Below, piece after piece: positions 23,341 through 46,290 of a stretch of 64,000 nt of DNA. This DNA comes from Minisyncoccia bacterium (lineage in GTDB: Bacteria; Patescibacteriota; Minisyncoccia; Phycocordibacterales; UBA9973), in assembly GCA_039809245.1 (NCBI GenBank), contig JBDHUP010000002.1, positions 11,188-75,187 on the forward strand. Direction: 5' to 3'. The position numbers and the translations under genes were made by a program. Numbering within the stretch: position 1 is the first letter of the stretch; each line of letters begins with the position of its first letter. Under the pieces are notes generated by a model. It ran no database searches and was not told the origin of the DNA. It worked only from the letters and a program-made list of their open reading frames with translations.

Positions 23341-23427
23341 GGAGGTGTGGCTGAGTGGTTGAAGGCACTTGTCTTGAAAACAAGAGACCGTTTACGCGGT
23401 CCGTGAGTTCGAATCTCACCGCCTCCG
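23341..23427 (+). tRNA. tRNA-Ser (anticodon TGA), long variable arm; integration target
   Basis: Manual cloverleaf; anticodon loop CTTGAAA; acceptor GGAGGTG/CGCCTCC. Confidence 0.85.
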
Positions 23428-23429
23428 CA
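23414..23429 (+). repeat. attL: 16-bp tctcaccgcctccgca (3' end of tRNA-Ser), exactly repeated at 41904-41919
   Basis: Exact match found by eye. Confidence 0.65.
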
Positions 23430-23500
23430 TTGACAACTTGGTAGATACATGACCTGATTACTTATGTAACTAGTGCGACCCACAAACCTATCAAGTTACA

Positions 23501-23530
23501 AAAAAGAGCGATTCATTTCGCTCTTTTTTG
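23501..23530 (-). terminator. Hairpin agagcgattcatttcgctct plus T-run; terminator of the 189-aa gene. A near-identical hairpin lies at 41925-41942
   Basis: Seen in sequence. Confidence 0.55.
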
Positions 23531-24100
23531 TTATTTGTTTTCAAACTTTCTAACGATACGTTCATGTATCTGTATTAACTGTTCCTCAGTAAATATTTTG
23601 TCATATTTCCAGATCTTCCCTCCGAGAGAAAAAGCCTTCAAATAAGCTTCGCAATAGGTTTTTGGGTTTATAACCAAAACGTCATCTCTTTTCTCCCATC
23701 CTAAATCTAATTGGTAATCGTATTCTATTCTGTGTCCCATAGATCCAAGCCATTGGTGAGCAAGAATATTTCGCCAGTTATGAATATCTTCTGCTATTAA
23801 AGAAAACTTGAGATCATCCGTATCTCCATCAACAAAAGTTTCAAGGAATTGTTTGTAATCCTTGAACATCGAATTTGGACTTTCATTCGCAAAGAATACT
23901 TCGCCAACAGTAAGTGCCGATGCATGAACACCTAGAAACATCAAAGATGTTTGGTAGTGCGAAGGTGTCACTCCAATTTCATTATTGAAATAGTTTGCGA
24001 TGGAATTAAGTAGAGTTTCAATTGCCTCTACTGGATGACTCTTGAGTCGCTCAAGACGATGTTCTTGTGACTCTGAATTGTGTGAACGATTTTGACTCAT
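23531..24100 (-). CDS. Hypothetical protein with an R-x4-H motif (RNILAH), possible HEPN-like
   Basis: 189 aa; motif seen in translation; first gene inside the island. Confidence 0.3.
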   Translation of the reverse strand: MSQNRSHNSESQEHRLERLKSHPVEAIETLLNSIANYFNNEIGVTPSHYQTSLMFLGVHASALTVGEVFFANESPNSMFKDYKQFLETFVDGDTDDLKFSLIAEDIHNWRNILAHQWLGSMGHRIEYDYQLDLGWEKRDDVLVINPKTYCEAYLKAFSLGGKIWKYDKIFTEEQLIQIHERIVRKFENK

Positions 24101-24162
24101 ACTTTAATTTTAGCATTTTTCAAATTTGACTCCACACACTGTTTTTTAGAGAGTTTGAGTGT

Positions 24163-25542
24163 ATGAATAATATAAATGAAAGGTCTGTGGGAAATGCGAC
24201 CTTACCAAATAAACCACTTCCCGTTATTAAGTACTGTCTCTATGCTCGTAAATCAATGGAAGACGAAGAACGGCAAGCTTTGTCTATTGATTCACAGCTA
24301 AAAGAAATGAAGCAAATAGCAGAAAGAGATAATCTCTATGTCGCTACTATGCGAACAGAAGCTCACTCTGCAAAGAATTCTGGTCAACGTCCTGTCTTTA
24401 ATCAAATGATTGAAGAAATACGTGAGGGTAAATACAACGCAATTCTTACATGGAATCCAGATCGTTTAAGCAGAAATGCTGGCGATCTCGGTGTATTGGT
24501 TGATCTTATGGACAGTCAATTATTAGTTGAGATACGGACCTATAATCAAAAGTTTAGTAACTCACCGAATGAAAAGTTTTTACTCATGATACTTGGTTCT
24601 CAAGCAAAACTTGAGAATGACAATAAGAGTATTAATGTGAAGCGTGGTCTTCGTACCAAGGTTGAGATGGGATTATGGCCCACTGTTGCACCAACAGGAT
24701 ATCTAAACAACATGACTCGAGGCAAAGAGGGTCATGTGATTATCGATCCAATTCGTGCACACGTTGTAAAACAAATATTCCAACTCGCAGCAGAAGGCTG
24801 GAGTCATAGAAGAATCAGAAGATGGCTTCGTGATGATTTGGATTTCAGATCCAAAAACAATAAGCACTTGGCTATGAGTACGATACAGAAAATATTATGT
24901 ACTCCTTTCTATTATGGCGAGTTTGAGTTTCCTAGAAAAAGTGGCAATTGGTATAAAGGTATTCATACACCACTCATTACAAAAGAATTATATGATCAGG
25001 TGCGAGAGCAGACTGACGCAAAGAAAAGATTGCAATATGTGTACAAGAAAAACTTTGCCTATACCAAGTTAATGAAGTGTGGTTTGTGTGGTGGAAATGT
25101 TACCGCAGAGGAAAAGTTCAAGGCTCTCAAAGACGGATCTATCGCTCGATATGTTTACTATGGATGCACTCGATCCAAAGATCCATCATGTAAGATTAAA
25201 TATATTCGTGAGGAATATCTCATCCAATCACTTCGTGAGTTGGTTGATAAATTATCACTCGACGATCTTGGTTTGCGTGGTCAATTTGAGAAAGAGGTTG
25301 AACGTATCCACCGATTCAACTGTGATGTTATGGGCAAACCACCCATGTATACCGATTCTGAAGAGCAAGATGTTGATATTAAAAAGTATATTAAATACAT
25401 TCTTCTCGATGGTTCTATAGAAGAGAAACGAAACATACTCCTCAATCTGAAGAGTAAATTAATTCTCAAGGACGGCTTCGTTTATCTCGATGTTGTTACA
25501 GATGAAGACGAGAGTCTTATGCCTACTCCTGTAGGAGATTAA
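24163..25542 (+). CDS. Large serine recombinase (resolvase catalytic domain, recombinase domain, zinc ribbon, coiled coil)
   Basis: YARKS catalytic-serine motif, CGLCGG...C zinc ribbon, 459 aa. Confidence 0.85.
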   Translation: MNNINERSVGNATLPNKPLPVIKYCLYARKSMEDEERQALSIDSQLKEMKQIAERDNLYVATMRTEAHSAKNSGQRPVFNQMIEEIREGKYNAILTWNPDRLSRNAGDLGVLVDLMDSQLLVEIRTYNQKFSNSPNEKFLLMILGSQAKLENDNKSINVKRGLRTKVEMGLWPTVAPTGYLNNMTRGKEGHVIIDPIRAHVVKQIFQLAAEGWSHRRIRRWLRDDLDFRSKNNKHLAMSTIQKILCTPFYYGEFEFPRKSGNWYKGIHTPLITKELYDQVREQTDAKKRLQYVYKKNFAYTKLMKCGLCGGNVTAEEKFKALKDGSIARYVYYGCTRSKDPSCKIKYIREEYLIQSLRELVDKLSLDDLGLRGQFEKEVERIHRFNCDVMGKPPMYTDSEEQDVDIKKYIKYILLDGSIEEKRNILLNLKSKLILKDGFVYLDVVTDEDESLMPTPVGD

Positions 25543-26899
25543 TCCTTTTATCATTCAGCACTAGTCTACTTCTTAAGTGTCCCAGTAGCTCACGCTTCTC
25601 AAGCGGTGTACCTTCACGCAACACATACTTAGCATATTCCCGAGTATTCACATCATCTTCATTGATGCTGTATTTTGGTGTACCTTTTGTTGCTAGTCTC
25701 TGTAATCTATTGAATCGCTTGATTTCTTCTTCGAGTTTCATTCGCATACCCAACTCATTGATGCTTACCTTATCGATGACCTTAAATAATTCTTCGATCA
25801 GTTCTTCTTCTCGTATGTATTTGTTTTTACAATTCCTATCCTTGGACTTACTGCATGAATAGTAGACGTACTTTGCTGTTGTTCCATCTTTAAGTTCCTT
25901 ATATTTCTCTTGTGCTGTTATTCCTGATTCACACATCCCGCAGGTGAATAATTTAGTGAATGCAAACTCTCTATTTTCTCGCACTATCTTATCTCTCTTT
26001 AATCTATCTTGAGCCTTATCAAACAATTCCTTAGTGATCAACGGTTCGTGCGATCCTTGATACCACTGTCCTGAGTTTCGTGGATATTCAAATGGTCCGT
26101 AGTAGATTGGCATATCGAATATACGATAAACCCCCGACAGAGTCAGGGGTTTATTCCCTCGAGTATAGAAGTTCAAATCGAACCGTAACCAGTTATAGAC
26201 TTTTCTACCACTCCATCCTTCGAATGCAACTTTCTCAAACATCTGTTTTATGACATGAGCACGATCTGGATCGGGTATGATCTGACACTTCTTATCCATT
26301 CTTTTCTGATTGATGTATCCCAGCGGTGCCATTCCGGGCCAGAGACCTGATTCAACTCGGGTACGCAGTCCACGCTTCACATTGATACCTCGGTTATCGT
26401 TTTCGAGTTTAGCCTGACTTCCCAAAATCATCAGGAGGAATTTCTCGTTTGGATTGTTTGAAAATGTCTGACCGAATGTTCGTATCTGTAAAAGTTTTCC
26501 TGCATCCATCAAGTCCACAATTTTTCCAAGGTCTCCTGCGTTTCTACTGATACGGTCAGGTGCCCACGTGAGAATCGCATTATATTTACCATCTTTTATT
26601 TCTTCGATTATTTCATTGAATACTGGTCGCTGACCCGTTTCCTTTGCCGAATGGCTTTCTCTTTTCATTGCCACAATCTCCAAGCCCTCACGATCTGCCA
26701 ACTGAAGCATTTCTTTGATCTGGGAGTCGATAGAGAGGACTTGGCGTTCTTCTGACTCGCTCGATTTTCTGGCGTACAGACAATACTGTGTTTTTACGCT
26801 TTTAATATCTATTTGGGGCATCTCAAAGCCCTGTGGTGCTGTTATTTTCATACAACCCATTAATGACGCAGACCATTTGAGGAGTCTAGAGCGTCCCAT
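25523..26899 (-). CDS. Large serine recombinase, paralog of the preceding gene; convergent with a 20-bp 3' overlap
   Basis: CLYARKS motif, CGMC...C zinc ribbon; ~55-60% identity to the neighbour by eye; start probably at an internal Met (MKITAPQ or MPQIDIK). Confidence 0.85.
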   Translation of the reverse strand: MGRSRLLKWSASLMGCMKITAPQGFEMPQIDIKSVKTQYCLYARKSSESEERQVLSIDSQIKEMLQLADREGLEIVAMKRESHSAKETGQRPVFNEIIEEIKDGKYNAILTWAPDRISRNAGDLGKIVDLMDAGKLLQIRTFGQTFSNNPNEKFLLMILGSQAKLENDNRGINVKRGLRTRVESGLWPGMAPLGYINQKRMDKKCQIIPDPDRAHVIKQMFEKVAFEGWSGRKVYNWLRFDLNFYTRGNKPLTLSGVYRIFDMPIYYGPFEYPRNSGQWYQGSHEPLITKELFDKAQDRLKRDKIVRENREFAFTKLFTCGMCESGITAQEKYKELKDGTTAKYVYYSCSKSKDRNCKNKYIREEELIEELFKVIDKVSINELGMRMKLEEEIKRFNRLQRLATKGTPKYSINEDDVNTREYAKYVLREGTPLEKRELLGHLRSRLVLNDKRINLLQE

Positions 26900-26959
26900 T
26901 TCCTAGCTGTTGGTAACTAAATTACCCTTATTTTTCAATGTAAGCTAGGATACAGACCT

Positions 26960-28702
26960 ATGAAAACCTATGAACACTTGACTTTATATCTTGAATCTGA
27001 TAGACTCAAATTACAACATATGAGAAAAGATATACAAGAAAAACTTAAGGGGATGCCAGAATTACTCTCTATCGGTCAGGTAGCAGAGATTTTCTCTATC
27101 CACCAAGACACCCTACGAAACTGGGAAAAAGACGGAACACTCGTCCCTCTTAGAGTCGGACCACGAAAAGATCGAAAGTACCGCCCACAAGACATTGAAG
27201 CAATTGTCGACAAAATGGGTAGCAAATTGACCCTTCCTCAACTTGAATCGTTCCTCTGGAAGAGTGCTGACATTCTTCGAGGAAAAATCGACAGTTCTGA
27301 TTACAAGAAATATATCTTTGGTCTTCTTTTCTACAAGCGAATGAGTGACGTTTGGGATGAAGAGTTCAACGCTGTAATGAAAGAGTACGATGATAAAGAT
27401 ATCGCTCGTGCAGACTACAATCACCGTTTCCAAGTTCCTAAAGATTGTCGATGGGAAAAAATTACAGAGCAAGCAGAAAACATCGGACAAAAACTCAATG
27501 ATATTTTTGATAAATTAACCAATGCAAACAGTCCGAAACTAGATAAAATTTTTGATGACCTAGACTTTGCAAACAAAGACCGTTTTCCAAACGAAACACT
27601 TCAGCGACTGATCAATCACTTTTCTCAATACAACTTTGGTAATACTTACATCAGCTCTGATCTCCTTGGTGACGCATATGAATACCTGATCAAACAGTTT
27701 GCAGCGGATGCAGGTAAGAAAGGTGGAGAGTTCTACACGCCTCGTGAAGTTGAAAAAGTTATCGTGGGCATTCTAAAGCCACACCAGAAAGACCACATCT
27801 ACGATCCAACAGTTGGATCGGGTGGTTTCCTTTTGGAAGCATATGACTATTTGAAACAAAAGTCTGGTGAAAAGATCGCAAAGACTTTGTATCTATACGG
27901 TCAAGAACAAAACCTTGCAACCTTTGCGATTGCGAAAATTAACATGTTCCTCCACGGACTTGATAGTGCCGATATTCGCCGAGGTGACACATTGGCAAAT
28001 CCACAATTCCTTAATCAACAAGGAGGTCTTCAAACATTCGACATTGTAGTAGCTAATCCTCCGTACTCAATCAAAGACTATGAATGGGAGGCATTCAAGA
28101 ATAAGTTTGGTCGTTTGGAGGGATACGATGCACCACCCGAGAAAAATGCTGATTATGCTTTTGTCCTCCATATAATCAAATCAATGAACACTAATGGTCG
28201 TGCAGGTATTGTGTTGCCACACGGTGTCTTAACTCGAGGTAATGCTGAGGCACGAATCCGTGAACAAATACTTAAAAATGATCTTGTTGAGGCAATTGTT
28301 GCTCTACCATCAAAACTATTCTATGGGACAGGTATTCCTGCCGTAGTGGTTATCCTTAACAAAAACAAAGCTGAGGACAAGAAAAACAAGGTTTTGATTA
28401 TCGATGCCGAAAAAGATTTTCAGGAAGGCAAAAATCAAAATACTCTAAGACCTGCCGATATAAATAAGATTGTAAAAGCATTTAATGGATACGAGGATAT
28501 CGATAAATACGCATGTGTTGTAACATTGAAAGATATAGAGGAGAAAGATTTTAACCTTAATATCCGAGAGTACATTGATTCATCTGAAGAAGAGGAGGTT
28601 ATTGATGTGAAAAAAGTAAGAAGTGAAATTGCTTCACTTAAAAAAGAATTATCAAAAGCAGATGCTTTAGTTGAAAAGTATTTAGATGAGCTTGGCTATT
28701 AA
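26960..28702 (+). CDS. hsdM: Type I R-M N6-adenine DNA methyltransferase HsdM carrying an ~85-aa N-terminal excisionase/MerR-type HTH extension
   Basis: HsdM N-domain (LTLPQLESFLWKSADILRG), motif I DPTVGSGGFL, motif IV NPPYS; N-terminal LSIGQVAEIFSIHQDTLRNWEKDG HTH. Confidence 0.9.
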   Translation: MKTYEHLTLYLESDRLKLQHMRKDIQEKLKGMPELLSIGQVAEIFSIHQDTLRNWEKDGTLVPLRVGPRKDRKYRPQDIEAIVDKMGSKLTLPQLESFLWKSADILRGKIDSSDYKKYIFGLLFYKRMSDVWDEEFNAVMKEYDDKDIARADYNHRFQVPKDCRWEKITEQAENIGQKLNDIFDKLTNANSPKLDKIFDDLDFANKDRFPNETLQRLINHFSQYNFGNTYISSDLLGDAYEYLIKQFAADAGKKGGEFYTPREVEKVIVGILKPHQKDHIYDPTVGSGGFLLEAYDYLKQKSGEKIAKTLYLYGQEQNLATFAIAKINMFLHGLDSADIRRGDTLANPQFLNQQGGLQTFDIVVANPPYSIKDYEWEAFKNKFGRLEGYDAPPEKNADYAFVLHIIKSMNTNGRAGIVLPHGVLTRGNAEARIREQILKNDLVEAIVALPSKLFYGTGIPAVVVILNKNKAEDKKNKVLIIDAEKDFQEGKNQNTLRPADINKIVKAFNGYEDIDKYACVVTLKDIEEKDFNLNIREYIDSSEEEEVIDVKKVRSEIASLKKELSKADALVEKYLDELGY

Positions 28703-28708
28703 TACAAT

Positions 28709-30292
28709 ATGACTATTACTGATTACAAAACAGAAAGAGAGAATGATGTAAGTAAAATTAAGTCTTCTGTCCACCCTAAAAAGGTTGTCGTTGCAGGGCC
28801 TGGGACAGGTAAGAGTTTTTTGTTTCAAGAACTTATCAAAGAGAAGAAAAAGTCTGGTAAGACTGATTTTGTTGCTATTACATTCATAGGTAAATTAGGT
28901 GATGCACTTGCTGATGACCTCTGTGGTTTAGCTGAAACTATGACTATGCATGGTTTTGCGAGAAGATTTGTTCTAGAAAAGTGTAAGGGCTGGATTTATT
29001 ACCCTAGAATGTATGACATCATTAAAGCTGATTTAAAAAGCGAAGGTATTGATGATTTTGAAATTGGAGACGACAATTACAAAAAGAAAACTCTTTTTTA
29101 TAAAGCTGTTGGTGATGAAGATGTTGTTCATTACGCAATCCAGATATGTGAAAAGGACAAATCAAAGATTCCTACTCACGATTTAATATTAATTGATGAG
29201 TTCCAGGACTTTAATGAAAAAGAATCGCAATTTGTTGATTTGCTTGCTGAGAAAAATGAGATTGTGATAGTTGGCGATGACGATCAGGCACTCTATGAAT
29301 TCAAAGGCTCATCTCCAGCTTATATTAGAAGCAAACACCACACAAGCAATACAGATTTTGAAAGTCATACGTTGAGATTTTGTTCGAGATGTACTGATGT
29401 TGTGATTAAATATTTTCATGCTCTCGTGGAGAAATTTAACCTTAAAGATTCTACAAAAAATCGGATTGAAAAGGATTATATATGTTACGTGCCTGACAAA
29501 GAAAAAGATTCTAAAGCGAACCCACAAATACATCTTATAAAAAATTGCCCTAGTGGAATGATTGCTTTTAAGATAAGAGCTGAGTTAGAAAAACTTGTTA
29601 CCGAGCAAAAAATTAAAGACATTCTCATTATTGGTGAAGGAAGATCTTGCAAAGCTATCCTTGAATCGATAGCAAAGCAACTGAAACACTACGGATTTAA
29701 AAATGTAGATTACGGTAAATCTAATGGCTATCTAGATACTAAGCAGAATATTGTTGATGCTTATAAGTTCTTAGCGAATGATCCTGAGTCAGTTTTGGGT
29801 TGGCGAATACTTGATAATCCAACAGATCAAACTGAAAAAGAAAGGCATCTAAAAAATTCTAAGACCTTAAAAGTAATTATTTCAGGTAAATCTGCTGAGA
29901 TTAAAAAACTCAAAGATACTGCTATTGTCGAACTAGAAAAGACTATAGAAAATAATCACGTTGATGATCCCATCCTCAAGAGATCTGTTTTTATTGATGA
30001 ATTACGAGACCGAAACATTGTTCTCTCAAGACCCCTTGGAAACTTAAATATTACAGTATGCAATATTCTGAATTCGAAAGGACTTGGTGCTGATGTTGTA
30101 TTTTTGGTCGGATTTGACGATGGTAAATTTCCTGCAAAAAACATACCGACTGACAGCGAAATTTATCAAATGCTTGTTGCTATTACAAGATCGAAGAAGC
30201 GAATGTATCTCGTTAATACAACTGGAAAGAAAACATCAGTCTTTCTCGATTGCTTGGATGCCAGTGACTTAAGCACAAAAGAAATTAAGTAA
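28709..30292 (+). CDS. Compact UvrD/Rep-like SF1 helicase embedded between hsdM and hsdS
   Basis: Walker A AGPGTGKS, motif II LILIDEFQDFN, motif III VGDDDQALYEF, C-terminal motifs SKGLGADVVFLVG and VAITRSKKRMYL; 6 bp after hsdM, 1 bp before hsdS. Confidence 0.75.
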   Translation: MTITDYKTERENDVSKIKSSVHPKKVVVAGPGTGKSFLFQELIKEKKKSGKTDFVAITFIGKLGDALADDLCGLAETMTMHGFARRFVLEKCKGWIYYPRMYDIIKADLKSEGIDDFEIGDDNYKKKTLFYKAVGDEDVVHYAIQICEKDKSKIPTHDLILIDEFQDFNEKESQFVDLLAEKNEIVIVGDDDQALYEFKGSSPAYIRSKHHTSNTDFESHTLRFCSRCTDVVIKYFHALVEKFNLKDSTKNRIEKDYICYVPDKEKDSKANPQIHLIKNCPSGMIAFKIRAELEKLVTEQKIKDILIIGEGRSCKAILESIAKQLKHYGFKNVDYGKSNGYLDTKQNIVDAYKFLANDPESVLGWRILDNPTDQTEKERHLKNSKTLKVIISGKSAEIKKLKDTAIVELEKTIENNHVDDPILKRSVFIDELRDRNIVLSRPLGNLNITVCNILNSKGLGADVVFLVGFDDGKFPAKNIPTDSEIYQMLVAITRSKKRMYLVNTTGKKTSVFLDCLDASDLSTKEIK

Positions 30293-30293
30293 T

Positions 30294-31418
30294 ATGAATA
30301 ATCCTCTTAAACAAAAGAATATTCCGAAAGGATGGGAATACGGTTCTCTTGGAGATTTTATTGTAGATATTAAAGATGGAGGAACTCCTTCTAGGCGTAA
30401 AGGTGAATATTTTGGTGGTGGTATACCATGGGTTGTCATCAAAGATATAAAATCTAGAATTTACTCTACAAACGAAACCCTTTCTAAATTAGGCATTGAA
30501 AATTCAAGTGCTAAGGTTTTTCCTGCAGGCACAGTTATTTTATCATTTGGTGCAACGATTGGAGAAGTTGGTATCGCAGAAGTTGATTTAGCTACAAAGC
30601 AAGGTATTGCCGGAGTTTTGCCAGATGTTTCAAAAATTACAACTGAATATTTATATTTTTTATTACAATCTCAAAAAAAGTTACTCAATCAAATGGCTAC
30701 AGGAAGTACTATTAAGGAAGTACGTCCAAATATTATCAAGAAAATTAATATACTTGTCCCCCCAATAAAAGAGCAGAAGAAAATTGCTGATATTTTGTTA
30801 TCTGTTGATGAAGAGATTCAAAAGGTTGAAGAGATAATTTCCGCGACTGAAAAATTAAAAAAAGGGCTGATGTCAGGATTATTTACTAAAGGAATTGGTA
30901 ATAATAAATTTCAAAAAACAAGAATCGGAGATATATTAACTTTAGAATACGGCAAACCATTAAAAGCATCAGATAGAGTCTCTGGAGATATACCAGTTTT
31001 TGGTTCAAACGGTATAGTTGGATATCATGATACAAGCTTAGTAAAAGGACCTGGTGTTATTGTAGGAAGAAAAGGAGGGGCTGGAGAAGTGATGTTTTCA
31101 GAAGTAGATTTTTATCCCATAGATACAGCTTATTTTGTAAAAACGGATTTTAATAAAAAATTTATTTATTATTTATTAGTAAATACAAACTTAAAAAAGC
31201 GTTCCGGAGGTAGTGCTGTTCCTGGATTAAATAGAAATGACGCATATTCTAAAATAGTGATTCTTCCAAAAAAAGAAGGTCAAGAGATAATTGTAAACAT
31301 TTTATCTTCTGTAGATAGAAAAATTATTACTTGTCAGAAATTAAAAACAAAATTATTAGAACTTAAAAAGGGATTAGTGTCGGATCTCCTGAGTGGAAGT
31401 AAAAGAGTAAAAATATGA
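30294..31418 (+). CDS. hsdS: Type I R-M specificity subunit HsdS (two target-recognition domains)
   Basis: Duplicated TRDs with conserved repeats (PPIKEQKKIADIL / PKKEGQEIIVNIL). Confidence 0.85.
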   Translation: MNNPLKQKNIPKGWEYGSLGDFIVDIKDGGTPSRRKGEYFGGGIPWVVIKDIKSRIYSTNETLSKLGIENSSAKVFPAGTVILSFGATIGEVGIAEVDLATKQGIAGVLPDVSKITTEYLYFLLQSQKKLLNQMATGSTIKEVRPNIIKKINILVPPIKEQKKIADILLSVDEEIQKVEEIISATEKLKKGLMSGLFTKGIGNNKFQKTRIGDILTLEYGKPLKASDRVSGDIPVFGSNGIVGYHDTSLVKGPGVIVGRKGGAGEVMFSEVDFYPIDTAYFVKTDFNKKFIYYLLVNTNLKKRSGGSAVPGLNRNDAYSKIVILPKKEGQEIIVNILSSVDRKIITCQKLKTKLLELKKGLVSDLLSGSKRVKI

Positions 31419-32473: not shown

Positions 32474-32482
32474 CTAAACAAT

Positions 32483-35395: not shown

Positions 35396-35397
35396 CT

Positions 35398-35967
35398 ATG
35401 AAAAAGCATATAGAACTTCACAAAAGAAAAGTTCCATATACGCTCAAAGTAAGTAAGCGAGCAAAAAGACTCCGCCTCGCAATTTATTGTGATGGTGCTT
35501 TTGTTGTGACCACTCCTCGAAATGTTGAGGTTTCAGTTATTGAGAAATTCATCATACAAAGATCTCAGTGGGTTATCGATAAGTTAGATTACTTCAGCCA
35601 ATTCTCTGATGTATTCAAAAAGAAGAATACTCAAGCAGAATATTTGAAGTACAAAGAAGAGGCTCTATCTTTAGCCGAGAAAAAGGTTAAGAAATTCAAT
35701 AAGATTTACAAATTCTCTTACAACAAGATTAATATCAAAAATCAAAAGACTCGCTGGGGTAGCTGTTCTAAAAAAGGTAACCTTAATTTCAACTATAAAA
35801 TTGCGTTGTTGCCTGAACGTCTTGCTGAGTACATAGTCGTACACGAACTCTGCCACCTTGGACAATTTAATCACTCTCAGAAGTTTTGGAATTTGGTAGC
35901 CAAGGCTATACCTGACTATCTAGAGATCAAGGAGGAGTTAAAAAGAAGTGGTTTAAGATTTCATTAA
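35398..35967 (+). CDS. DUF45/COG1451 (YgjP-like) zinc metallohydrolase, a known companion of Type I R-M operons
   Basis: HELCHL...H metal-binding motif near the C-terminus; 2 bp after hsdR. Confidence 0.65.
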   Translation: MKKHIELHKRKVPYTLKVSKRAKRLRLAIYCDGAFVVTTPRNVEVSVIEKFIIQRSQWVIDKLDYFSQFSDVFKKKNTQAEYLKYKEEALSLAEKKVKKFNKIYKFSYNKINIKNQKTRWGSCSKKGNLNFNYKIALLPERLAEYIVVHELCHLGQFNHSQKFWNLVAKAIPDYLEIKEELKRSGLRFH

Positions 35968-35968
35968 T

Positions 35969-36214
35969 ATGGATGACTGGAGCTTCAACATACCCAAAAA
36001 GATTTTGAGAGTATTATTGATTGGTGCAGTCATACTTGCTGTTCTCTACGGGGTTTTTACTGGTGACTCAAAGAAAGGTGCTGATTTTTATATGAAGGAG
36101 GTTAAATTTATTATGACTCCAATAATAAATAAAATGCAAAATCGTATGGAAAAGATATTCGATAGAGCACTTAATAAAACTCAAGAGAACCAGAGTGAGA
36201 ATGTCGAAAACTAA
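35969..36214 (+). CDS. Small single-TM protein
   Basis: 81 aa ORF, 1 bp after the preceding gene. Confidence 0.3.
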   Translation: MDDWSFNIPKKILRVLLIGAVILAVLYGVFTGDSKKGADFYMKEVKFIMTPIINKMQNRMEKIFDRALNKTQENQSENVEN

Positions 36215-37701
36215 CCGAACAATATTCCACCTGAAACTGGATTATTCTCAATAATTTTAAGAACCACGATGGAAAAAGCGTCAGCTAAGTCATCGTGTTT
36301 TTCTTTTCCAAATCCAAGAAGTTGCTCGATTAATTCTTCACAACCGCTTTCAGGAAATAAAATGCGTCCGTCCTTTAACAATGGAGTCGTGAGTCGTAAT
36401 CGTGCACCTTTGTCGTTTCTTCCTGTTGGCACACCCTCAATGTCATACTTTTGACTCTCAAAGAATTGGATCAATGCTTTTTGATATCCAACATCTTCCA
36501 CAAAAAGTTTTACCCGATTGTGTTTCATTTTCTCGGTTGCCACCAACGCTTTGATAAATTCTGCGTGTACAGGAAATGAACTCCTTTTGTTATAAGGATG
36601 CTTTTGAATATAGATTTTCATATTTTTCCCTGTGCCGTATACATATGCAACGACAATAGCGGTGCAGTCAGCTGAATCTTTTTCACTTACCGCCAAATCG
36701 ATACCTATACAGATACTTCTAAATCCATCGGCAGGCATTTTGTCATAGAATGTGATCCATTCAGGCAAGACAATCTGCTCGTCAGTCGCAATGATCTGAA
36801 GCATATACTCACGAAACCACGCAACATCATCCATAGTTTTTTCTCGCTCAGCTTCAACATCTTCTGGAGCAGGATACTTGCCGGGCCATAAAGGATTGCC
36901 CTTGGGATCAACAATAGGATATTCACGGTATACAGCCTTAATGCGACTCATTTCACCATTTTCGATTTTCTTTTGTAGTCGCTTCAGCACAGAGTCCTCA
37001 TGAAGTAAGTTACCCACAGCAATGATTCTCGTTTTCTTGGTTCCTGCAGGGATTACTTCACTTACAAGCCAGTTGAATGTTTTATCACGACCAACACGAG
37101 TTTTAACCGATTGGGTATCTTCAATGTCGTCTATGATAATAAGGTCGGGGCGATGTTGATCGTGTCTTACTCCACGGATGCTTTGCTCTACAGAGCTGAT
37201 CATAATCTTCACATTGAGTCTCTTGATAATGAGTGCCGTAGCATTACCGAGATTGTTCTTTTCTTCTTCAAAAGGTCCAAGGTCTTTTCGCAGAAGGTCA
37301 TTATTTAAAAGCTGACTTTTTATATTCAAAAGATACTGCCGTGCTTTTTGCTCAGTTTGACCACAAATAACAATAAGCTTTCTTTGCTGTATACCGAGGA
37401 TAGACCATAGGACATACGCTGTTGAAATGATGGTTGATTTTGCTAAACCACGGAATGCAACAAACACTGCAAGTTTAATGCGATCATCTTCAAGAATACG
37501 AAACATCTCCTCGTGAAAGGGTGCTGTCTCATACTCCATGTATTGGTGAAAATATATTGGGAAAAAGAATTCAAAACTATTTTGTACAGTATGTTTTCGT
37601 ACTGTTTGATCAATAAGAATTTTCTCAAAAATATCTTCACTATTCCTTTGTGTCTTTAAACTTGGCATGTTTGCGTAATGATGAAAGTTTGAGTGCGGCA
37701 C
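36211..37701 (-). CDS. Phage terminase large subunit (ATPase plus RNase-H-like nuclease)
   Basis: Walker A-like RGLAKST, Walker B DLIIIDD, C-terminal nuclease acidic residues (IGIDLAVSEKDSAD). Confidence 0.75.
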   Translation of the reverse strand: MPHSNFHHYANMPSLKTQRNSEDIFEKILIDQTVRKHTVQNSFEFFFPIYFHQYMEYETAPFHEEMFRILEDDRIKLAVFVAFRGLAKSTIISTAYVLWSILGIQQRKLIVICGQTEQKARQYLLNIKSQLLNNDLLRKDLGPFEEEKNNLGNATALIIKRLNVKIMISSVEQSIRGVRHDQHRPDLIIIDDIEDTQSVKTRVGRDKTFNWLVSEVIPAGTKKTRIIAVGNLLHEDSVLKRLQKKIENGEMSRIKAVYREYPIVDPKGNPLWPGKYPAPEDVEAEREKTMDDVAWFREYMLQIIATDEQIVLPEWITFYDKMPADGFRSICIGIDLAVSEKDSADCTAIVVAYVYGTGKNMKIYIQKHPYNKRSSFPVHAEFIKALVATEKMKHNRVKLFVEDVGYQKALIQFFESQKYDIEGVPTGRNDKGARLRLTTPLLKDGRILFPESGCEELIEQLLGFGKEKHDDLADAFSIVVLKIIENNPVSGGILFG

Positions 37702-38071
37702 GAATGAGCTTCTTTTCTTCTTTCGTCAGAGGCTTTTCTTTTGATTCAATACTTCCTGAAAGCTCAAGTTTGTTGCTGTACCGTGGATTGTGAGTTGAGA
37801 GATATAACCGAATAGCCTCTATCTTTCTCTCACTAATCAGAGCAAAGAGTTGGTTCTCAGCAACATCTGACATAAATTTTCTACCCTCGTTAAGAGACTC
37901 ATCAATTTGCCGTTCAAACTTCTTACTATTCGCAATCCATCGATAAACCGTAGCTCGTGATACACCAACTTTTTGACAGGAAGTTTCAAGAGTGGGCGTA
38001 CGCTTGAGCTGGTCGAGCAAAGCTTCTTTGATACGCGATTGCCTTTGTTGTATTGAATCTTTTCTACTCAT
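37640..38071 (-). CDS. Terminase small subunit-like HTH protein
   Basis: N-terminal HTH (VGVSRATVYRW) typical of phage TerS; immediately upstream of terL. Confidence 0.45.
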   Translation of the reverse strand: MSRKDSIQQRQSRIKEALLDQLKRTPTLETSCQKVGVSRATVYRWIANSKKFERQIDESLNEGRKFMSDVAENQLFALISERKIEAIRLYLSTHNPRYSNKLELSGSIESKEKPLTKEEKKLIRAALKLSSLRKHAKFKDTKE

Positions 38072-38826
38072 AGTTTTTCTGCTTTGACTCCAGACAGCTT
38101 TTCAAAACGATCAATGACTGTTTGACAGTATTCAATATCCATCTCGACTCCGATGCATATACGCTTTGTCTGCTCGCACGCAAGCAATGTTGTACCTGAA
38201 CCTAGAAACCCATCAAAAACCACATCTCCGATCCGTGTACTATTTAGTACAAGTCTACGAATAAGATCGATTGGCTTTGTCGATGGATGCATTTTGCTTT
38301 TATTTGGTTTTGGACAAACCAAGACACTCTTGTCTTTTGATTTCAAAAACTCATGTGTGCCATGCCACCCGTATGCGATTAGTTCATGTTGAGGTGCATA
38401 GTCCATACGACCGATGACTGCATGAGTTTTCACCCAAATGAGAAGTTGTCCAAATTTAAGACCTGCTTCGTGCATTCCTTCACGCAAAGCAAATACCATC
38501 TTGTCTGAATTAAAGATATAAAAGCTATTTTTACGATCAAGGTGGGGTCTAATAGCCTCAATCCAATCACGGGTGAAAGTTTTATATTCCAGATCGCTTT
38601 GTAAGTGATCGTTGAGTATTGGTTTATTCTTGGCGAGTGTCTGAAATCCTTCCTTACTTTCAGCTACGGCTACTCCATAGGGTGGGTCAGAGATTACTGC
38701 TTTGATTTTGTGTGTACTAACAAGCCTTGCGATCATATCCTTGTTTCGTGAATCTGCACACAAAAGCAAATGCTGTCCTAACCGAAATGCATCGCCGTAT
38801 TTAATTGAGCTTTGTGACTTTTTCAT
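38068..38826 (-). CDS. DNA methyltransferase (beta-class N6A/N4C, DPPY)
   Basis: Motif IV SDPPYG precedes motif I FLGSGTT. Confidence 0.8.
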   Translation of the reverse strand: MKKSQSSIKYGDAFRLGQHLLLCADSRNKDMIARLVSTHKIKAVISDPPYGVAVAESKEGFQTLAKNKPILNDHLQSDLEYKTFTRDWIEAIRPHLDRKNSFYIFNSDKMVFALREGMHEAGLKFGQLLIWVKTHAVIGRMDYAPQHELIAYGWHGTHEFLKSKDKSVLVCPKPNKSKMHPSTKPIDLIRRLVLNSTRIGDVVFDGFLGSGTTLLACEQTKRICIGVEMDIEYCQTVIDRFEKLSGVKAEKL

Positions 38827-40078
38827 TGGATATTTTCTTAAATCTATTAATAATTACCTGACAGAAAACTGGTTCAATTTCTGCAAGGAATGCTCGACGT
38901 TTAAGTGCTTCACAGGCAACCAGAATACTCCCTGATCCAGCCGTCAGATCAAGAATCGTATCACCAGGTTTACTACACCGTCTGATGCTTTTTTCGTATA
39001 AAGTCGGTGGCTTCATTGTCGGATGCTGATATTCAGAACTAGGCAGTCTTTTCGCAAGCCATATCTGGAACATGTCCGAAATATCATCAAGTAATCTATT
39101 ACCAGAGGATATTTCCTTATTCTGAAATTCAGTCAGATTCTTAACTTTGTCAGATAGATAGGGCTTACCTCGAACTCCATACATACAAAGCTCTACGGCA
39201 CGATTAAAAGCGATTTTAGGGGTTGGATTATGTTGAGACTTTGCCCACAAACAGAGTCGTTTGAAATCAATACCTACTGCTTTGAAAACATCCTGCATCA
39301 TCCCTAGGTATTTCTCATCCAGCCATGCAAAAGCATGGCAATCGTTCTTCGATACCCCCAGTGCGTTTTTTAAGATACTTGCAAGAAACTCCTTGTACTC
39401 AGCATCTGATTTTTTATCATTGATAGTTCCTCCGTAGTTCTGCTTGCCACCTAATCCCGCCGAGTAATCTACGCCTATGTTATATGGAAAATCTATATTG
39501 ATGAGATCTATCCGCTCAGAACCCACTAGCTCTGTAACGGTTTCTTTTTTAGTACTATCTCCACAAATTAAAACGTGACTCCCGAGTGAAAATTTATCAC
39601 CCAATTTAATGTCAGTTTTTTGAGCTTCCTTGAGTTCCTTTTCAAGATCAATATCATCGTCATCTACTTCGAGGTTGTCATCGAAAATATTAGAAAGATC
39701 GAATGAATCAAAACCCGCAGTAAGGAGTTCGTCGAGATCAAAATCTCGTGCAAGCTTTTCAAAATCCCAAGACGCACCGCTTCGATTTGAGGTGAGTAGG
39801 TAATCTTTAAATTCTTTTTCTGTAAGAGTTCTGTTTGGAACTCTTACCTCTATTTCTTCATCTTCTCGACCAAGAAGAGACAAGACCATCACTCGTTGGT
39901 TTCCAGCAACCAGAGTGCCGTCTGTGTTGATACACGGCAATTCTGCCAGATCAAATTTCTTGAGACTTCGCTTGAGTCCCTCAAGTTGTGTAGGCGAAAG
40001 TTTGCGAGGATTCTTTTCGTATCGAATCAAATCCTTCACTTTACGTTTCTCCGTATGCCAAACTAATTTTTTGCTCAT
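38801..40078 (-). CDS. ParB-like nuclease domain fused to a DNA methyltransferase
   Basis: N-terminal ParB/Srx-like segment (EKNPRKLSPTQLEGLKRSLKKF...AGNQR), C-terminal MTase motifs (DFPYN, LTAGSGS). Confidence 0.75.
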   Translation of the reverse strand: MSKKLVWHTEKRKVKDLIRYEKNPRKLSPTQLEGLKRSLKKFDLAELPCINTDGTLVAGNQRVMVLSLLGREDEEIEVRVPNRTLTEKEFKDYLLTSNRSGASWDFEKLARDFDLDELLTAGFDSFDLSNIFDDNLEVDDDDIDLEKELKEAQKTDIKLGDKFSLGSHVLICGDSTKKETVTELVGSERIDLINIDFPYNIGVDYSAGLGGKQNYGGTINDKKSDAEYKEFLASILKNALGVSKNDCHAFAWLDEKYLGMMQDVFKAVGIDFKRLCLWAKSQHNPTPKIAFNRAVELCMYGVRGKPYLSDKVKNLTEFQNKEISSGNRLLDDISDMFQIWLAKRLPSSEYQHPTMKPPTLYEKSIRRCSKPGDTILDLTAGSGSILVACEALKRRAFLAEIEPVFCQVIINRFKKISNEKVTKLN

Positions 40079-40171
40079 AGTTATATTGGTTAGCTAATAA
40101 TGTAGATACGTGTATATCTGTATTGAGCATAGACCTAAAGAAAACAGCTGTAATCTGTAACTTTAGAGGGT

Positions 40172-40206
40172 AAAAAAAGCAAAAAAGCCCACATTTATGG
40201 GCTTTT
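40172..40206 (-). terminator. Hairpin aaaagcccacatttatgggctttt plus T-run on the minus strand
   Basis: Seen in sequence. Confidence 0.55.
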
Positions 40207-40227
40207 AAGAAAACTTTTCCACTCCAC

Positions 40228-40845
40228 TTATTCGCCGAGCACTCTGTCGTCTATAAATTCAAGTCTAATGTCTGGGTTGAATGCATATCCTTTTCTTTTT
40301 CTATCAAAATCTCCTTTGATGAATTCGTCTCGATCAGTAAGTTTGAAATGTCCTACAACACGACGATTTATTTTTCTTATAGTAACTCTCAGCGACTCTG
40401 TGTTTTTATAAGTCCCTAAAATTTCAACTGCATCTTCAAGTGTTACGTTCTTTCGTTCATAGAATAATCTGATGATGGCTCGTTGATCAGGAGTGAAATC
40501 AAGAGGCTCTTTGGCATAATCTTTTCTCGTAAGAAACATCTCGCCGTCTTTATTGATGTGAACAACAAAATCAATCAGCTTTTTCATACGCATTTGATCG
40601 TATGGTCGCAGGTAGAGTAGCTCGCCAAGTTTCTGACCATTTCCTTTTTTAATATAGATAGTTTCTTTCAATTCAATCTTTCGGTATCCGCCTGTATAAA
40701 TGGTTTCAGTAAGTTCGACTTTTGAATTGCGATCAGAGACCATGTTCATTCTTCTAATATCCAAAAACTTACACGATTCCTCGTGTTCTTTATCTTTAAA
40801 AGGATATATGAATTCTGGCTTCTTCCGCTTCTTATTCATAGCCAT
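40228..40845 (-). CDS. Hypothetical protein with a sigma-70 region-4-like C-terminal HTH
   Basis: LTPDQRAIIRLFYERKNVTLEDAVEILG...RVTIRKINRRV resembles ECF sigma region 4. Confidence 0.3.
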   Translation of the reverse strand: MAMNKKRKKPEFIYPFKDKEHEESCKFLDIRRMNMVSDRNSKVELTETIYTGGYRKIELKETIYIKKGNGQKLGELLYLRPYDQMRMKKLIDFVVHINKDGEMFLTRKDYAKEPLDFTPDQRAIIRLFYERKNVTLEDAVEILGTYKNTESLRVTIRKINRRVVGHFKLTDRDEFIKGDFDRKRKGYAFNPDIRLEFIDDRVLGE

Positions 40846-40877
40846 ATTTTACCTTAAATAAGGGATATAATGTACGT

Positions 40878-41594
40878 ATGGGGACGATTCAAGAATGTAT
40901 CTTTTGTAAAAGCACAACCAACTCATTCAATAGTGTTGAGCATATTTTTCCTGAGTCGCTTGGTAACAAAGAGAAGATTTTAGATAAGGGATTCGTTTGT
41001 GATACTTGTAATAATGAAGTTCTCTCTGGGCTAGATGCTGAGCTTCTTGATTTTGAGGGGATCAAATTCATGAGAGTCATGAATGGAATTGAAAGTAAAT
41101 CTGGGAAAGTTCCTGTTGCTAATTTTCCGAATCTAAAAATAGAAAACCCTAACAAGGATCACATCAAAGTACATCTTCAAACCATGAAGCATGTACGAGA
41201 TCAAAGCGATACGGGTTTCAAACTAGATTTTCGTGGCACAAGAAAAATGGATACGAAACGATTAAAACTTCTTGCGAGGTCTTTGTATAAGATTGGATAT
41301 GAATTAGTGTGTCTTGATCACGGACGAGATTTTGTCCTGTCGCCACGGTTTGATGAGGTGCGAGATATCATCCTCGGTAAAAAGGACTTTAATGGTTACA
41401 TACTCATGGGGAGTAACGAAAAATCAGAAAATCCTAGAGTCAGTTATTATCCACTCAAAGACGACAAAGGTAGAGAGTTTATGGCTTTTGACTTTGTATA
41501 TCTATTCGTACGATTTATCTTCGATATGGAGCGAAGAGAGGCTTTGCTAGAAGCTGGTACAAAACTTGAGCGTATGACCGTCATGAAGTTTTAG
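40878..41594 (+). CDS. HNH-family endonuclease-like protein
   Basis: CxxC (CIFCK) ... EHIFPESLGN ... CDTCNN arrangement. Confidence 0.5.
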   Translation: MGTIQECIFCKSTTNSFNSVEHIFPESLGNKEKILDKGFVCDTCNNEVLSGLDAELLDFEGIKFMRVMNGIESKSGKVPVANFPNLKIENPNKDHIKVHLQTMKHVRDQSDTGFKLDFRGTRKMDTKRLKLLARSLYKIGYELVCLDHGRDFVLSPRFDEVRDIILGKKDFNGYILMGSNEKSENPRVSYYPLKDDKGREFMAFDFVYLFVRFIFDMERREALLEAGTKLERMTVMKF

Positions 41595-41761
41595 CCGTAA
41601 ATGAGACAATGCCAAGGAAGCCCTTTCTATGTCTCATTTGTCGCATTTACAGAAACTAGACCCCGACCCACAAACCTATTTTTTACCAACTAAAAAATGC
41701 TAGAATAGCCTTATAAGGCTTGGAGTGTGGGGTACCATACCCGAGTACACCGCAAATAAAG

Positions 41762-41786
41762 AAAACCCGAAAGGGTTTTTCTTTTT
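41762..41786 (+). terminator. Hairpin aaaacccgaaagggtttt plus T-run
   Basis: Seen in sequence. Confidence 0.45.
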
Positions 41787-41903
41787 GCGGGCGAGAAAGA
41801 GAACTGCTTCTCTTTCGTGTGAGATTCGAAAGACTTTTCTGTCATTTGGTTACAAATGTAGAAAAGTACCTGGCTACGTGGTAGCCGAAAAGTGTACTCA
41901 TGG

Positions 41904-41919
41904 TCTCACCGCCTCCGCA
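41904..41919 (+). repeat. attR: second copy of the 16-bp tRNA-Ser 3' end
   Basis: Exact match to 23414-23429. Confidence 0.65.
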
Positions 41920-41943
41920 AAAAAAGAGCGATTAATCGCTCTT
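41919..41943 (-). terminator. Hairpin agagcgattaatcgctct with A/T-run flanks; terminator of the VOC gene
   Basis: Seen in sequence. Confidence 0.5.
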
Positions 41944-41951
41944 TTTCTTTT

Positions 41952-42860: not shown

Positions 42861-42864
42861 AAAA

Positions 42865-43278
42865 CTACATTGATAAGATGAAAGCTATTATCATAATTGA
42901 AGCTAGTTGATAGCTTATCATTACAAATATTTGCTTAGCCCAGAATTTTTTCTTGGTATTTCCCCAGATAACAGTTCCAACCTGTACAGGAACCAAGAAT
43001 CCAAGCCATATCCAGAAAGCAATATGAAAAACATTAAATATAAGTAAGAGTGGTACTAGTGCCGCGAAAGATACAGTCATAAGTAGTGTTAGTAAAAGCT
43101 GAAGAAGATAGAATGGTGCCATTTTTTTCTGCATAGCTTTCATTTCTTCTTTAGACAAATTTGTAACTTCCATAATCTGCATCCACCATTTACCAAACAT
43201 AGCTGGTGAATACCACAACGCTCCTAAAGCAAATTGTACTATGGTTGCTAATAAAACTAATTTAAAATTTATATCCAT
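42865..43278 (-). CDS. Small membrane protein (DUF1761-like)
   Basis: 137 aa, 4 TM; GALWYSPAMFGKWW motif. Confidence 0.4.
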   Translation of the reverse strand: MDINFKLVLLATIVQFALGALWYSPAMFGKWWMQIMEVTNLSKEEMKAMQKKMAPFYLLQLLLTLLMTVSFAALVPLLLIFNVFHIAFWIWLGFLVPVQVGTVIWGNTKKKFWAKQIFVMISYQLASIMIIAFILSM

Positions 43279-43304
43279 ATATTTTATTAAAATTATTTAA
43301 TTTA

Positions 43305-44276: not shown

Positions 44277-44456
44277 AGATATATTATATCATCTAAAAAT
44301 GCTTACCAAAAAACTCAATAAAATCAAGCTTTTTCTGAAAATGTAGTATAATAAAAGGTGTCTCGCGGTTTGAACACTATAGAGAAGTAGTTCTTGAATT
44401 ATAGATTAAATACACTTTCAAGCGAGAATCACAAAAGTGTATATCAAACGTTATAT

Positions 44457-45014: not shown

Positions 45015-45018
45015 ATAC

Positions 45019-46255: not shown

Positions 46256-46257
46256 TA

Positions 46258-46288: not shown

Positions 46289-46290
46289 TT

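Follow-up and report, generated by a model that had tools for sequence, protein, structure and literature searches.

A probable large-serine-recombinase island beside an intact tRNA-Ser gene in a Minisyncoccia genome, and a tRNA-mimicking module that carries its apparent border repeat

The DNA analyzed here (the window) is a stretch of 64,000 nucleotides from a Minisyncoccia bacterium (GenBank assembly GCA_039809245.1, contig JBDHUP010000002.1, positions 11,188 to 75,187 of the forward strand), and our subject is an 18-kb block of recombinase, restriction-modification (R-M) and phage genes that lies just downstream of a tRNA-Ser(TGA) gene. An earlier note on this sequence had described an island of ~18.5 kb at that gene, bounded by an exact 16-bp direct repeat of the tRNA 3' end at 23414-23429 and 41904-41919. 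The tRNA gene, the repeat, the proposed ends of the island, the two large serine recombinase (LSR) genes and the structured module that holds the right copy of the repeat are arranged as follows, with positions counted from the first letter of the window; related loci are cited below by L numbers.

23341 to 23428, forward strand: tRNA-Ser(TGA), intact, the probable integration target (ARAGORN; Rfam tRNA, 59.3 bits).
23414 to 23429, forward strand: left copy of the 16-mer TCTCACCGCCTCCGCA, the tRNA 3' end; its last 5 nt, CCGCA, form the putative core (23425-23429).
23430 to 23475, forward strand: putative left-end (P') arm TTGACAACTTGGTAGATACATGACC, then a small hairpin; found directly 3' of tRNA-Ser genes in about 40 loci.
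23476 to 23491, forward strand: left copy of the sub-terminal direct repeat CGACCCACAAACCTAT, an exact 16-nt match to the right copy.
23500 to 23529, no strand assigned: terminator hairpin AAAAAAGAGCGA...TCGCTCTTTTTT of the island, in a position to be used by both the tRNA and orf189; stem conserved in the family.
24187 to 25542, forward strand: LSR1, large serine recombinase, 451 aa (Resolvase, Recombinase and Zn_ribbon_recom domains; phrog_95 integrase; YARKS motif).
25523 to 26851, reverse strand: LSR2, large serine recombinase, 442 aa, the family-defining gene, which reads towards the tRNA (domain and PHROG matches).
41664 to 41679, forward strand: right copy of CGACCCACAAACCTAT, just inside the proposed island end.
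41730 to 41754, forward strand: putative right-end (P) arm GGGTACCATACCCGAGTACACCGCA and proposed true right junction, with the core CCGCA at 41750-41754; family homology ends here.
41762 to 41779, forward strand: native tRNA-Ser terminator AAAACCCGAAAGGGTTTT, probably displaced 18.3 kb by the island; directly 3' of tRNA-Ser in L011, L018, L022, L028 and L031.
41784 to 41921, forward strand: tRNA-mimicking structured module ("D module"), ~135 nt, outside the proposed island (covariance model, 131.8 bits).
41904 to 41919, forward strand: right copy of the 16-mer, the 3' end of the module.
About 41920 to 41949, no strand assigned: hairpin AAAAAAGAGCGATTAATCGCTCTTTTT, placed as the terminator of the convergent 3-dmu-9_3-mt gene; its stem is that of the island's left-end hairpin.

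The repeat itself is real. TCTCACCGCCTCCGCA occurs exactly twice in the window, no third copy was found there even at 2 mismatches, and shuffled sequence predicts none by chance. The 16-mer spans the last T-loop base, the 3' strands of the T stem and the acceptor stem, the discriminator G and 2 further bases. These properties fit the view that the repeat is an attL/attR core duplication left by a tyrosine-type integrase and that the island runs from 23414 or 23430 to 41919: the two copies agree exactly, the window has no other, a chance match is not expected, the repeated sequence is that of the tRNA 3' end, the classic core position, and a terminator-like hairpin follows the right copy. Recombinase, R-M and phage genes do lie between the two copies (the LSRs, a type I R-M system and terminase genes), as the earlier note had said. 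Its statement that housekeeping genes lie outside holds for the left flank, which encodes RuvX, a tRNA-binding protein, a PilM-like protein, L19, a pseudouridine synthase and several tRNAs; the right flank is chromosomal but accessory-looking (a 3-dmu-9_3-mt/glyoxalase-like protein, DUF1761, a Na/Ca exchanger, an ECF sigma factor and a Cu-ATPase). The comparison of GC and skew that the note had suggested revealed no contrast between island and flanks; GC content is 0.372 in the island against 0.355 and 0.372 outside it, and composition is no island marker here.

The presence of an island can be judged from relatives that lack it. The flanking PilM-like protein led to 32 loci in metagenome-assembled genomes (MAGs) of Patescibacteria (Paceibacteria, Nomurabacteria and similar) at 53-68% identity, and in nearly all 32 the tRNA-Ser(tga) gene adjoins DUF5652-RuvX-PilM. 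In island-free relatives, the distance from tRNA-Ser to the same right-flank genes is only 0.1-1.5 kb: L015 has the tRNA, a terminator, DUF1761 and the 3-dmu-9_3-mt gene; L019 has the tRNA and then an ECF sigma factor gene; and L039 has the tRNA, a module of ~150 bp with a further copy of the tRNA end after it, and the 3-dmu-9_3-mt and ECF sigma factor genes. Recombinase, R-M and terminase genes are absent at this position in all three, which indicates that the window carries an island, and these loci, from other species, supply the empty tRNA-Ser site for which the earlier note had proposed to look. L018 likewise has no island at the site. In several relatives tRNA-Arg(gcg) lies 2-5 kb beyond tRNA-Ser, compared with 29 kb in the window.

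The same relatives show where the 16-bp repeat belongs. A second copy of TCTCACCGCCTCCG (0-1 mismatch) is found 149-180 bp past the tRNA in L018, L031, L039 and L042 with no island in between, so the repeat was not made by the insertion. The intervening DNA in these relatives corresponds to window 41756-41903 and consists of AAAACCCGAAAGGGTTTT, GCGGGCGAG, a hairpin, GTGTGAGATTCGAA, two hairpins and GTGTACTCATGG; that is, the last 165 bp of the island as first drawn (terminator, module and 16-mer) stand directly 3' of tRNA-Ser where there is no island. When window 23400-23429 is joined to 41756-41925, the product is identical to L018 over about 105 nt, a span that runs from the tRNA end through the terminator and halfway into the module. 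This match after joining argues for an 18-kb insertion between the tRNA end and its native terminator, with the right 16-mer lying outside the inserted DNA. A hairpin does follow the right copy of the repeat, as had been noticed, but the one that follows tRNA-Ser in relatives is AAAACCCGAAAGGGTTTT, which in the window lies at 41762-41779. If the repeat copies were the borders, the empty site would consist of the tRNA joined directly to AAAAAAAGAGCGATT (the 41920 hairpin); this sequence of tRNA T arm, 16-mer and hairpin had no exact match in 185,579 species genomes or in JGI metagenome contigs, as would be expected if the natural neighbor of the tRNA is the terminator at 41762. The earlier note had regarded related strains with the same genes but without the repeat as a counterindication; what the relatives show tells against the repeat as a border and leaves the island standing.

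The ends of the island could be placed from its own family. Relatives of LSR2 numbered 156 in JGI metagenome contigs, and 80 loci were fetched. Approximately 43 of these include a nearby tRNA, and in them the LSR gene and a tRNA-Ser gene, of whichever isoacceptor, converge from 0.1-9 kb apart; the exceptions to the tRNA-Ser target are one tRNA-Trp case and the viral contig L050, which lies at tRNA-Arg(gcg). Directly after ...CTCCGCA, the arm TTGACAACYTRGTAGATACATGACC appears in most of these loci despite their differing acceptor stems, and it is followed by a GCGACCCA motif and then by a terminator hairpin. In the window this terminator-like hairpin sits 70 nt downstream of the tRNA, its stem recurs at the left end of L054, L070, L074, L077, L092, L093, L097 and L098, and it probably acts as a replacement for the native tRNA terminator.

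At the other end, window 41663-41754 is homologous to the distal ends of L094, L072, L083, L077, L063, L057, L068 and L117. Similarity stops at GGGTACCATACCCGAGTACACCGC(A/C/T), beyond which lies unrelated host DNA or, in the tandem arrangements of L083 and L077, the left arm of the next element. The HNH gene has 94%-identical counterparts on two independent contigs, one from an NCBI MAG (L141) and one from a Logan assembly (L142), and both contigs stop exactly at ...GAGTACACCGC, which is window position 41754, and contig L002 stops exactly at the tRNA sequence ...CCGCCTCCGC. Because assemblies break at alternative junctions, these contig ends fit the proposed boundary. Family homology and the two contig ends at 41754 thus both stop ~150 bp to the left of the repeat. 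Nor do the related elements duplicate the tRNA end: no second copy of its 15 nt was found at up to 2 mismatches in any of the approximately 43 related loci, including four elements of 4.8-16.7 kb whose two ends both lie within the locus (L063, L068, L072 and L117).

The left junction reads tRNA...CCGCA|TTGACAAC and the right junction ...GAGTACACCGCA|AATAAAG, and the two have only CCGCA in common (23425-23429 and 41750-41754). The island would accordingly span 23430-41754, or 18,325 bp counting one core. The earlier proposal of an island at tRNA-Ser is upheld in kind, as a horizontally acquired element that carries recombinases, while its span of 23414-41919 gives way to these narrower limits. 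Inside both ends lies the exact repeat CGACCCACAAACCTAT, whose CGACCCA motif occupies the same positions in both arms and is conserved across the family; it may bind an accessory factor or protein in attP.

Three further observations concern these ends. In tandem elements, a P arm is followed by a P'-like arm TAAGAAYTTRGTA... (L083, about 138-1155; L077, about 2646-3472). The second unit in L083 measures only about 0.9 kb from P' arm to P-like arm and may be a miniature nonautonomous derivative. In L064 (6704-7100), the place of the tRNA next to the P' arm is taken by an IS3-like transposase gene, so that an insertion sequence stands at the attL junction of this family member; L064 had been considered as an attP site, with its P' arm lacking a preceding tRNA, and was rejected for that reason.

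Both LSR genes encode proteins with the Pfam families PF00239, PF07508 and PF13408, and the two proteins are 56% identical. The YARKS catalytic motif, identified from sequence only, is present in both and aligns to the N-terminal region of SPbeta SprA/YokA, the integrase that is also their nearest solved structure. The genes are convergent, overlap by 20 bp at their 3' ends and lie 0.8-3.4 kb from the tRNA. The same convergent pair occurs in L043, L053, L054, L061, L074 and L103, and most family members have LSR2 alone. None of the 16 open reading frames (ORFs) of the island matches the Phage_integrase family of tyrosine integrases. In published mycobacterial examples, cores measure 5-8 bp for serine integrases versus 25-76 bp for tyrosine integrases at tRNA genes (PMC8092301). 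A 5-bp core flanked by element-specific arms of ~25 nt therefore points to insertion of the serine-integrase type. LSR2 is the probable integrase, since of the two LSRs it is the one present in all loci, and the crossover dinucleotide would lie within or adjoining CCGC, the sequence common to all P arms and tRNA ends examined. No directionality factor was identified in the island, where the unassigned orf189 and orf81 are candidates for that role.

Taken together, we propose that site-specific recombination by a large serine recombinase inserted the island just past the discriminator of tRNA-Ser(TGA) and kept the tRNA intact. The island would have landed between the tRNA and a preexisting module and pushed the native terminator 18.3 kb away. 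We give this reading as a whole, an LSR-inserted island at 23430-41754 with the 16-mer belonging to a separate module, a probability of roughly 0.85.

Other copies of the island suggest that the family is mobile. Copies at 94-98% protein identity stand in other hosts at tRNA-Ser(gct), tRNA-Ser(cga) and tRNA-Ser(gga) (L054, L055 and L074). The sister strain L005 (Logan SRR23083766, 9990-10053) has the same module, 16-mer and right flank as the window but a different P arm, ...AGGTCCTAACACGAGTGTCTCCGCA, and another family member occupies the same site there. Near-identical copies at different tRNA-Ser genes, together with L005, argue that the family has moved recently.

The module that holds the right 16-mer proved to be one of many. 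In the window, it has at its 5' end the tRNA 3' end in reverse complement, interrupted by a hairpin, then three internal hairpins, and at its 3' end the right copy of the 16-mer. Seven copies of the module share a common fold of five helices with compensatory changes at 19 of 34 pairs, and a covariance model built from these seven yielded 28 strong matches, nearly all in genome loci of Paceibacteria. Copies other than that of the window include the following.

L018, 7955 to 8095 and 18083 to 18220.
L033, 1290 to 1429.
L040, 12827 to 12967 and 3103 to 3241.
L024, 14555 to 14707.
L028, 14352 to 14502.
L019, 4127 to 4250.
L022, 3945 to 4069.

When 26 of the hits were examined, most proved to follow a tRNA gene (Ser-tga, Arg-gcg, Arg-tct, Leu-gag or His-gtg) at a distance of 22-43 nt and on the strand of that gene. 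The two weakest placements overlap or abut a tRNA (a second Leu copy and possibly Val), and six modules have no tRNA within 600 nt, some of them at a locus edge. Each module resembles its own neighbor: the acceptor 3' strand and discriminator of the adjacent tRNA recur in reverse complement at the 5' end of the module, and the 3' end of the module copies the T-stem 3' strand, acceptor 3' strand and discriminator of that tRNA. Whatever the tRNA type, the interior keeps its three hairpins, CUGC loop and GTGTACT motifs. At the Leu tRNA of L024 the copy has diverged from the tRNA, yet the two ends of the module itself covary. In an alignment of 33 sequences that was fitted to the model, 90.8% of cells are paired, compared with 39-49% when partners are slid by 1-3 columns; both sides change at 30 of 34 pairs, and the covariation score is 0.521 versus at most 0.114. 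Covarying ends of this kind suggest selection on a folded single strand.

No Rfam family corresponds to the module, for which matches at E values up to 10 were at chance level, and only tRNAs exceeded the Rfam gathering thresholds over the window. The 3' motif of the module was not found in IMG/VR. Tentatively, and at not quite even odds, we regard these modules as an undescribed family of structured elements of ~125-150 nt in Paceibacteria, being either a tRNA-like noncoding RNA or a small mobile element or folded attachment site. As an RNA, the module could be processed by tRNA enzymes; as a mobile element or folded site, it could equally use tRNA 3' ends and possibly interact with the recombinases that target tRNA genes in this lineage. 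In both cases, the 16-bp repeat belongs to the module and not to the 18-kb island.

Three other ideas about the module were set aside. The published group I introns of Patescibacteria tRNAs, considered for its look of an interrupted T arm, lie in the anticodon loop and have no bearing on it. The resemblance of module GTGTACTC to the reverse complement of GAGTACAC in the P arm of the window was given up, since the family does not conserve this stretch of the arm. A primer-binding-site-like reading of the 5' end was dropped because the complement of CCA is absent.

The conservation of the module also bears on a history in two steps, in which a unit of ~165 bp (terminator plus module) integrated first and made the 16-bp duplication, and the LSR island arrived later to its left. 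The unit always stands between the tRNA 3' end on its left and the copy on its right, and in L040 the downstream gene comes right after tRNA-Ser, the terminator and the module both being absent. The terminator and first half of the module are identical in the window and L018 at 73 of 73 nt, though the bodies of the two tRNA-Ser genes differ and their PilM proteins are 65% identical, and the module after tRNA-Arg in L020 matches the tRNA-Ser module of the window at 95.6% over 45 nt. Such near-identity across distant hosts and tRNA types suggests horizontal spread. Against this, no recombinase is associated with the modules, they follow at least five tRNA types and yet keep a conserved interior, and the inverted tRNA-end copy at the 5' end covaries with the 3' copy, which simple integration fails to explain. 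We therefore see the two-step history as possible but somewhat doubtful.

In the proposal of an LSR-inserted island, the remaining genes between the two junctions are cargo and a set of phage-type genes, as listed here.

23531 to 24100, reverse strand: orf189, matched by nothing in Pfam, PHROGs or PADLOC; L076 has a homologue between its LSR and tRNA genes.
26960 to 28702, forward strand: HsdM, type I methyltransferase with an N-terminal MerR/helix-turn-helix (HTH_17) domain (Pfam; PADLOC MTase_I).
28709 to 30292, forward strand: UvrD/GajB-like superfamily 1 helicase inside the R-M operon (Pfam, PADLOC).
30294 to 31418, forward strand: HsdS, specificity subunit (Pfam; PADLOC Specificity_I).
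31415 to 32473, forward strand: PIN_12 domain protein (PADLOC candidate PDC-S34).
32483 to 35395, forward strand: HsdR, type I restriction subunit (Pfam; PADLOC REase_I).
35398 to 35967, forward strand: YgjP-like metallopeptidase-domain protein (Pfam).
35969 to 36214, forward strand: orf81, no family match; conserved in L043, L048 and L141.
36211 to 37668, reverse strand: TerL, terminase large subunit (phrog_38, E = 1.5e-80; Terminase_6C).
37640 to 38071, reverse strand: TerS, terminase small subunit-like helix-turn-helix protein (Pfam/PHROG).
38068 to 38826, reverse strand: DNA methyltransferase (N6_N4_Mtase), 252 aa (Pfam/PHROG).
38801 to 40078, reverse strand: ParB-like domain fused to a DNA methyltransferase, 425 aa (Pfam/PHROG).
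40228 to 40845, reverse strand: orf205, no family match; adjoins the HNH gene in L048, L133 and L141.
40878 to 41594, forward strand: HNH endonuclease (HNH_5) (Pfam; homologues found).

The gene set thus comprises a packaging-only phage module (HNH, ParB-methyltransferase, methyltransferase, TerS and TerL), an R-M system and two LSRs. The type I R-M system is complete, with HsdM, HsdS and HsdR all identified by Pfam and PADLOC, and two genes of defense type are embedded in it. No capsid, portal, tail or lysis genes were detected in the island (Pfam, PHROGs) or in L072 (Pfam), a complete relative of 15.2 kb at the same tRNA-Ser/DUF5652/RuvX locus in another species, and no domains of a replication module (primase or rep) or of a helper-responsive regulator were recognized in the island. 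Across IMG/VR and metagenome contigs, the conserved core of the family consists of the ParB-methyltransferase, the methyltransferase, TerS, TerL and LSR, often with HNH, while the cargo varies. It is a type I R-M system in the window, L043 and L050; defense-type genes beside TerL in L052 (a PLD-SNF2 helicase and an Eco57I-like enzyme); an R-M-like pair in L133, where a ResIII/SWI2_SNF2 helicase adjoins a large N6_N4 methyltransferase; and metabolic genes in L072. Every TerL relative found in IMG/VR adjoins an LSR gene, and no portal gene lies beside TerL in the annotated IMG/VR contigs L045, L049, L050 and L052. Because no examined family member has capsid, portal or tail genes, we infer that the island would be transferred in the capsids of a helper phage, in the manner of a satellite.

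The gene set could instead be read as a decayed, immobile prophage, whose terminase genes were left after the structural genes were lost and into which the R-M cassette was inserted later. TerL, TerS, HNH and methyltransferase genes are typical of the starts of phage late operons, related contigs are listed as viral in IMG/VR, and the R-M block interrupts the adjacency of TerL and LSR that is seen in L045, L049 and L116. The family as a whole points the other way: the packaging-only module and LSR recur without structural genes in dozens of contigs from different hosts, including the complete L072, the IMG/VR relatives pair TerL with an LSR and no portal as described above, both att arms are intact and match the family consensus, and near-identical copies at different tRNA-Ser genes indicate recent movement. 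We consider a prophage remnant unlikely.

The arrangement of these genes varies further among relatives. In the R-M operon of the window (26960-35967), the GajB/UvrD-like helicase and PIN_12 genes sit between the subunit genes; in the near-identical element L043/L054 (94-97% otherwise), HsdS has been swapped for one that is 27% identical to that of the window, and neither the helicase nor the PIN protein of the window has a tblastn match. Relative to the recombinase gene, the HNH-to-TerL block has the opposite orientation in L050 (1676-7778), L133 (5351-12151) and L052, where the order is HNH, LSR, tRNA. L046 (2435-5459) and L051 (699-3647) have two tandem, diverged TerL genes, 44-48% identical to TerL of the window, before the recombinase gene. 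A 56%-identical HNH homologue belongs to a different small element in L138 (7439-17312) and L139, along with a reverse transcriptase, an SU10-type major capsid protein and a 539-aa serine recombinase.

Beyond the module, window 41952-52720 forms a stretch of 10.7 kb that ends at tRNA-Arg(gcg). It encodes the glyoxalase-like 3-dmu-9_3-mt protein, DUF1761, a Na/Ca exchanger, ECF sigma and anti-sigma factors, and a CsoR-like repressor with a Cu-ATPase. Given that the interval from tRNA-Ser to tRNA-Arg is 2-5 kb in relatives, this stretch looks like a variable region, and it possibly contains older insertions.

Insertion of an 18,325-bp island by an LSR has to be weighed against several observations that do not favor it. 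The island has a second recombinase, LSR1, besides the probable integrase LSR2. The comparators come from other species, with 55-68% identity in a flanking protein, and a same-species empty site was not recovered; exact-protein look-ups returned one contig of the same arrangement and fragments that break at the junctions. The excised circular attP junction was not found in IMG/VR or in the retrieved loci. By our own reconstruction, attP measures ~51 bp (GGGT to ACCC) and has weak dyad symmetry, and GGGT starts both of its arms, one of which is about 5 nt longer than the other. The hairpin at about 41920-41949 has the same stem (AAAAAAGAGCGA/TCGCTCTTTTT) as the island hairpin at 23500-23529; it may be a relic of an older element that targeted the tRNA-end copy of the module, or a coincidence. 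If the module is an older integration scar, then the 16-bp repeat is the attachment duplication of a ~165-bp element. Finally, the satellite-like route of transfer is deduced from gene content.

A tyrosine-integrase island bordered by the 16-bp repeat is very improbable given the lack of such an integrase among its ORFs, the position of its last 165 bp in island-free relatives, the end of family homology and of two contigs at 41754, the approximately 43 related elements that lack such a repeat, and its unmatched empty site. The observation from which that view arose is confirmed, and its interpretation is partly supported.

By the textbook, an island border is recognized from an exact repeat of a tRNA 3' end; in the window, that rule sets the border 165 bp off and suggests the wrong recombination chemistry. 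In itself, the island is of an ordinary kind, a further serine-recombinase integrative element with its border corrected to 41754 and its core to CCGCA. Less ordinary are the tRNA-Ser 3'-end specificity of its LSR family, the packaging-only gene set and the module family, and the tRNA-mimicking module is more novel than the island. The island family is widespread and apparently undescribed in Patescibacteria and can be defined down to its arms, target and core; its hosts are uncultured bacteria with very small genomes, and little is known of their phages and mobile elements. The family targets the extreme 3' end of tRNA-Ser genes without damage to them, and its recombinases would be new serine integrases that are naturally directed to tRNA genes and whose attP and attB sequences are defined. 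Defense cargo combined with a packaging-only module offers a testable case for phage satellites in Patescibacteria.

Among known systems, tRNA islands with tyrosine integrases (P4-like elements and many pathogenicity islands) likewise occupy a tRNA 3' end, carry accessory or defense cargo and bring their own sequence to follow the tRNA. Unlike them, this island has no tyrosine integrase and makes no long core duplication, the repeat being that of the module. Its likeness to phage satellites (PICI, cf-PICI and PLE) is one of gene content alone: these too measure 5-18 kb, with an integrase at one end, packaging genes, defense cargo and no complete virion module, and PLE also uses a large serine recombinase. 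The island differs from them in having no recognized replication or regulatory module, and TerL without capsid genes corresponds to no defined satellite class.

For the module, the closest analogies are integron attC sites and tRNA-like RNAs, which measure about 60-140 nt, keep their structure by covariation and have terminal inverted repeats that pair. The module differs in that its outer helices copy the acceptor and T stems of the neighboring tRNA, in having no integron integrase, and in belonging to no Rfam family.

SCCmec is a nonphage island that a pair of large serine recombinases, CcrA and CcrB, inserts into a conserved housekeeping gene, likewise at its 3' end; its cargo varies, several elements can stand in tandem at one site, and direct target repeats of ~15 bp flank SCC elements. 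The LSR family described here also forms tandem elements (L077 and L083), but it lacks flanking direct repeats, its paired LSR genes are convergent rather than tandem, and most of its members have LSR2 alone. From serine-integrase prophages and phages (SPbeta with SprA/YokA, Bxb1 and phiC31) the island is set apart by the absence of virion genes, by its two paralogous LSR genes that are convergent and overlapping, and by its target, the extreme 3' end of a tRNA gene that is left undisrupted rather than a protein-coding gene (compare PMC8092301). With these same systems it shares an LSR built of resolvase, recombinase and zinc-ribbon domains and a very short attL/attR core, CCGCA, with element-specific arms of ~25 nt on each side.

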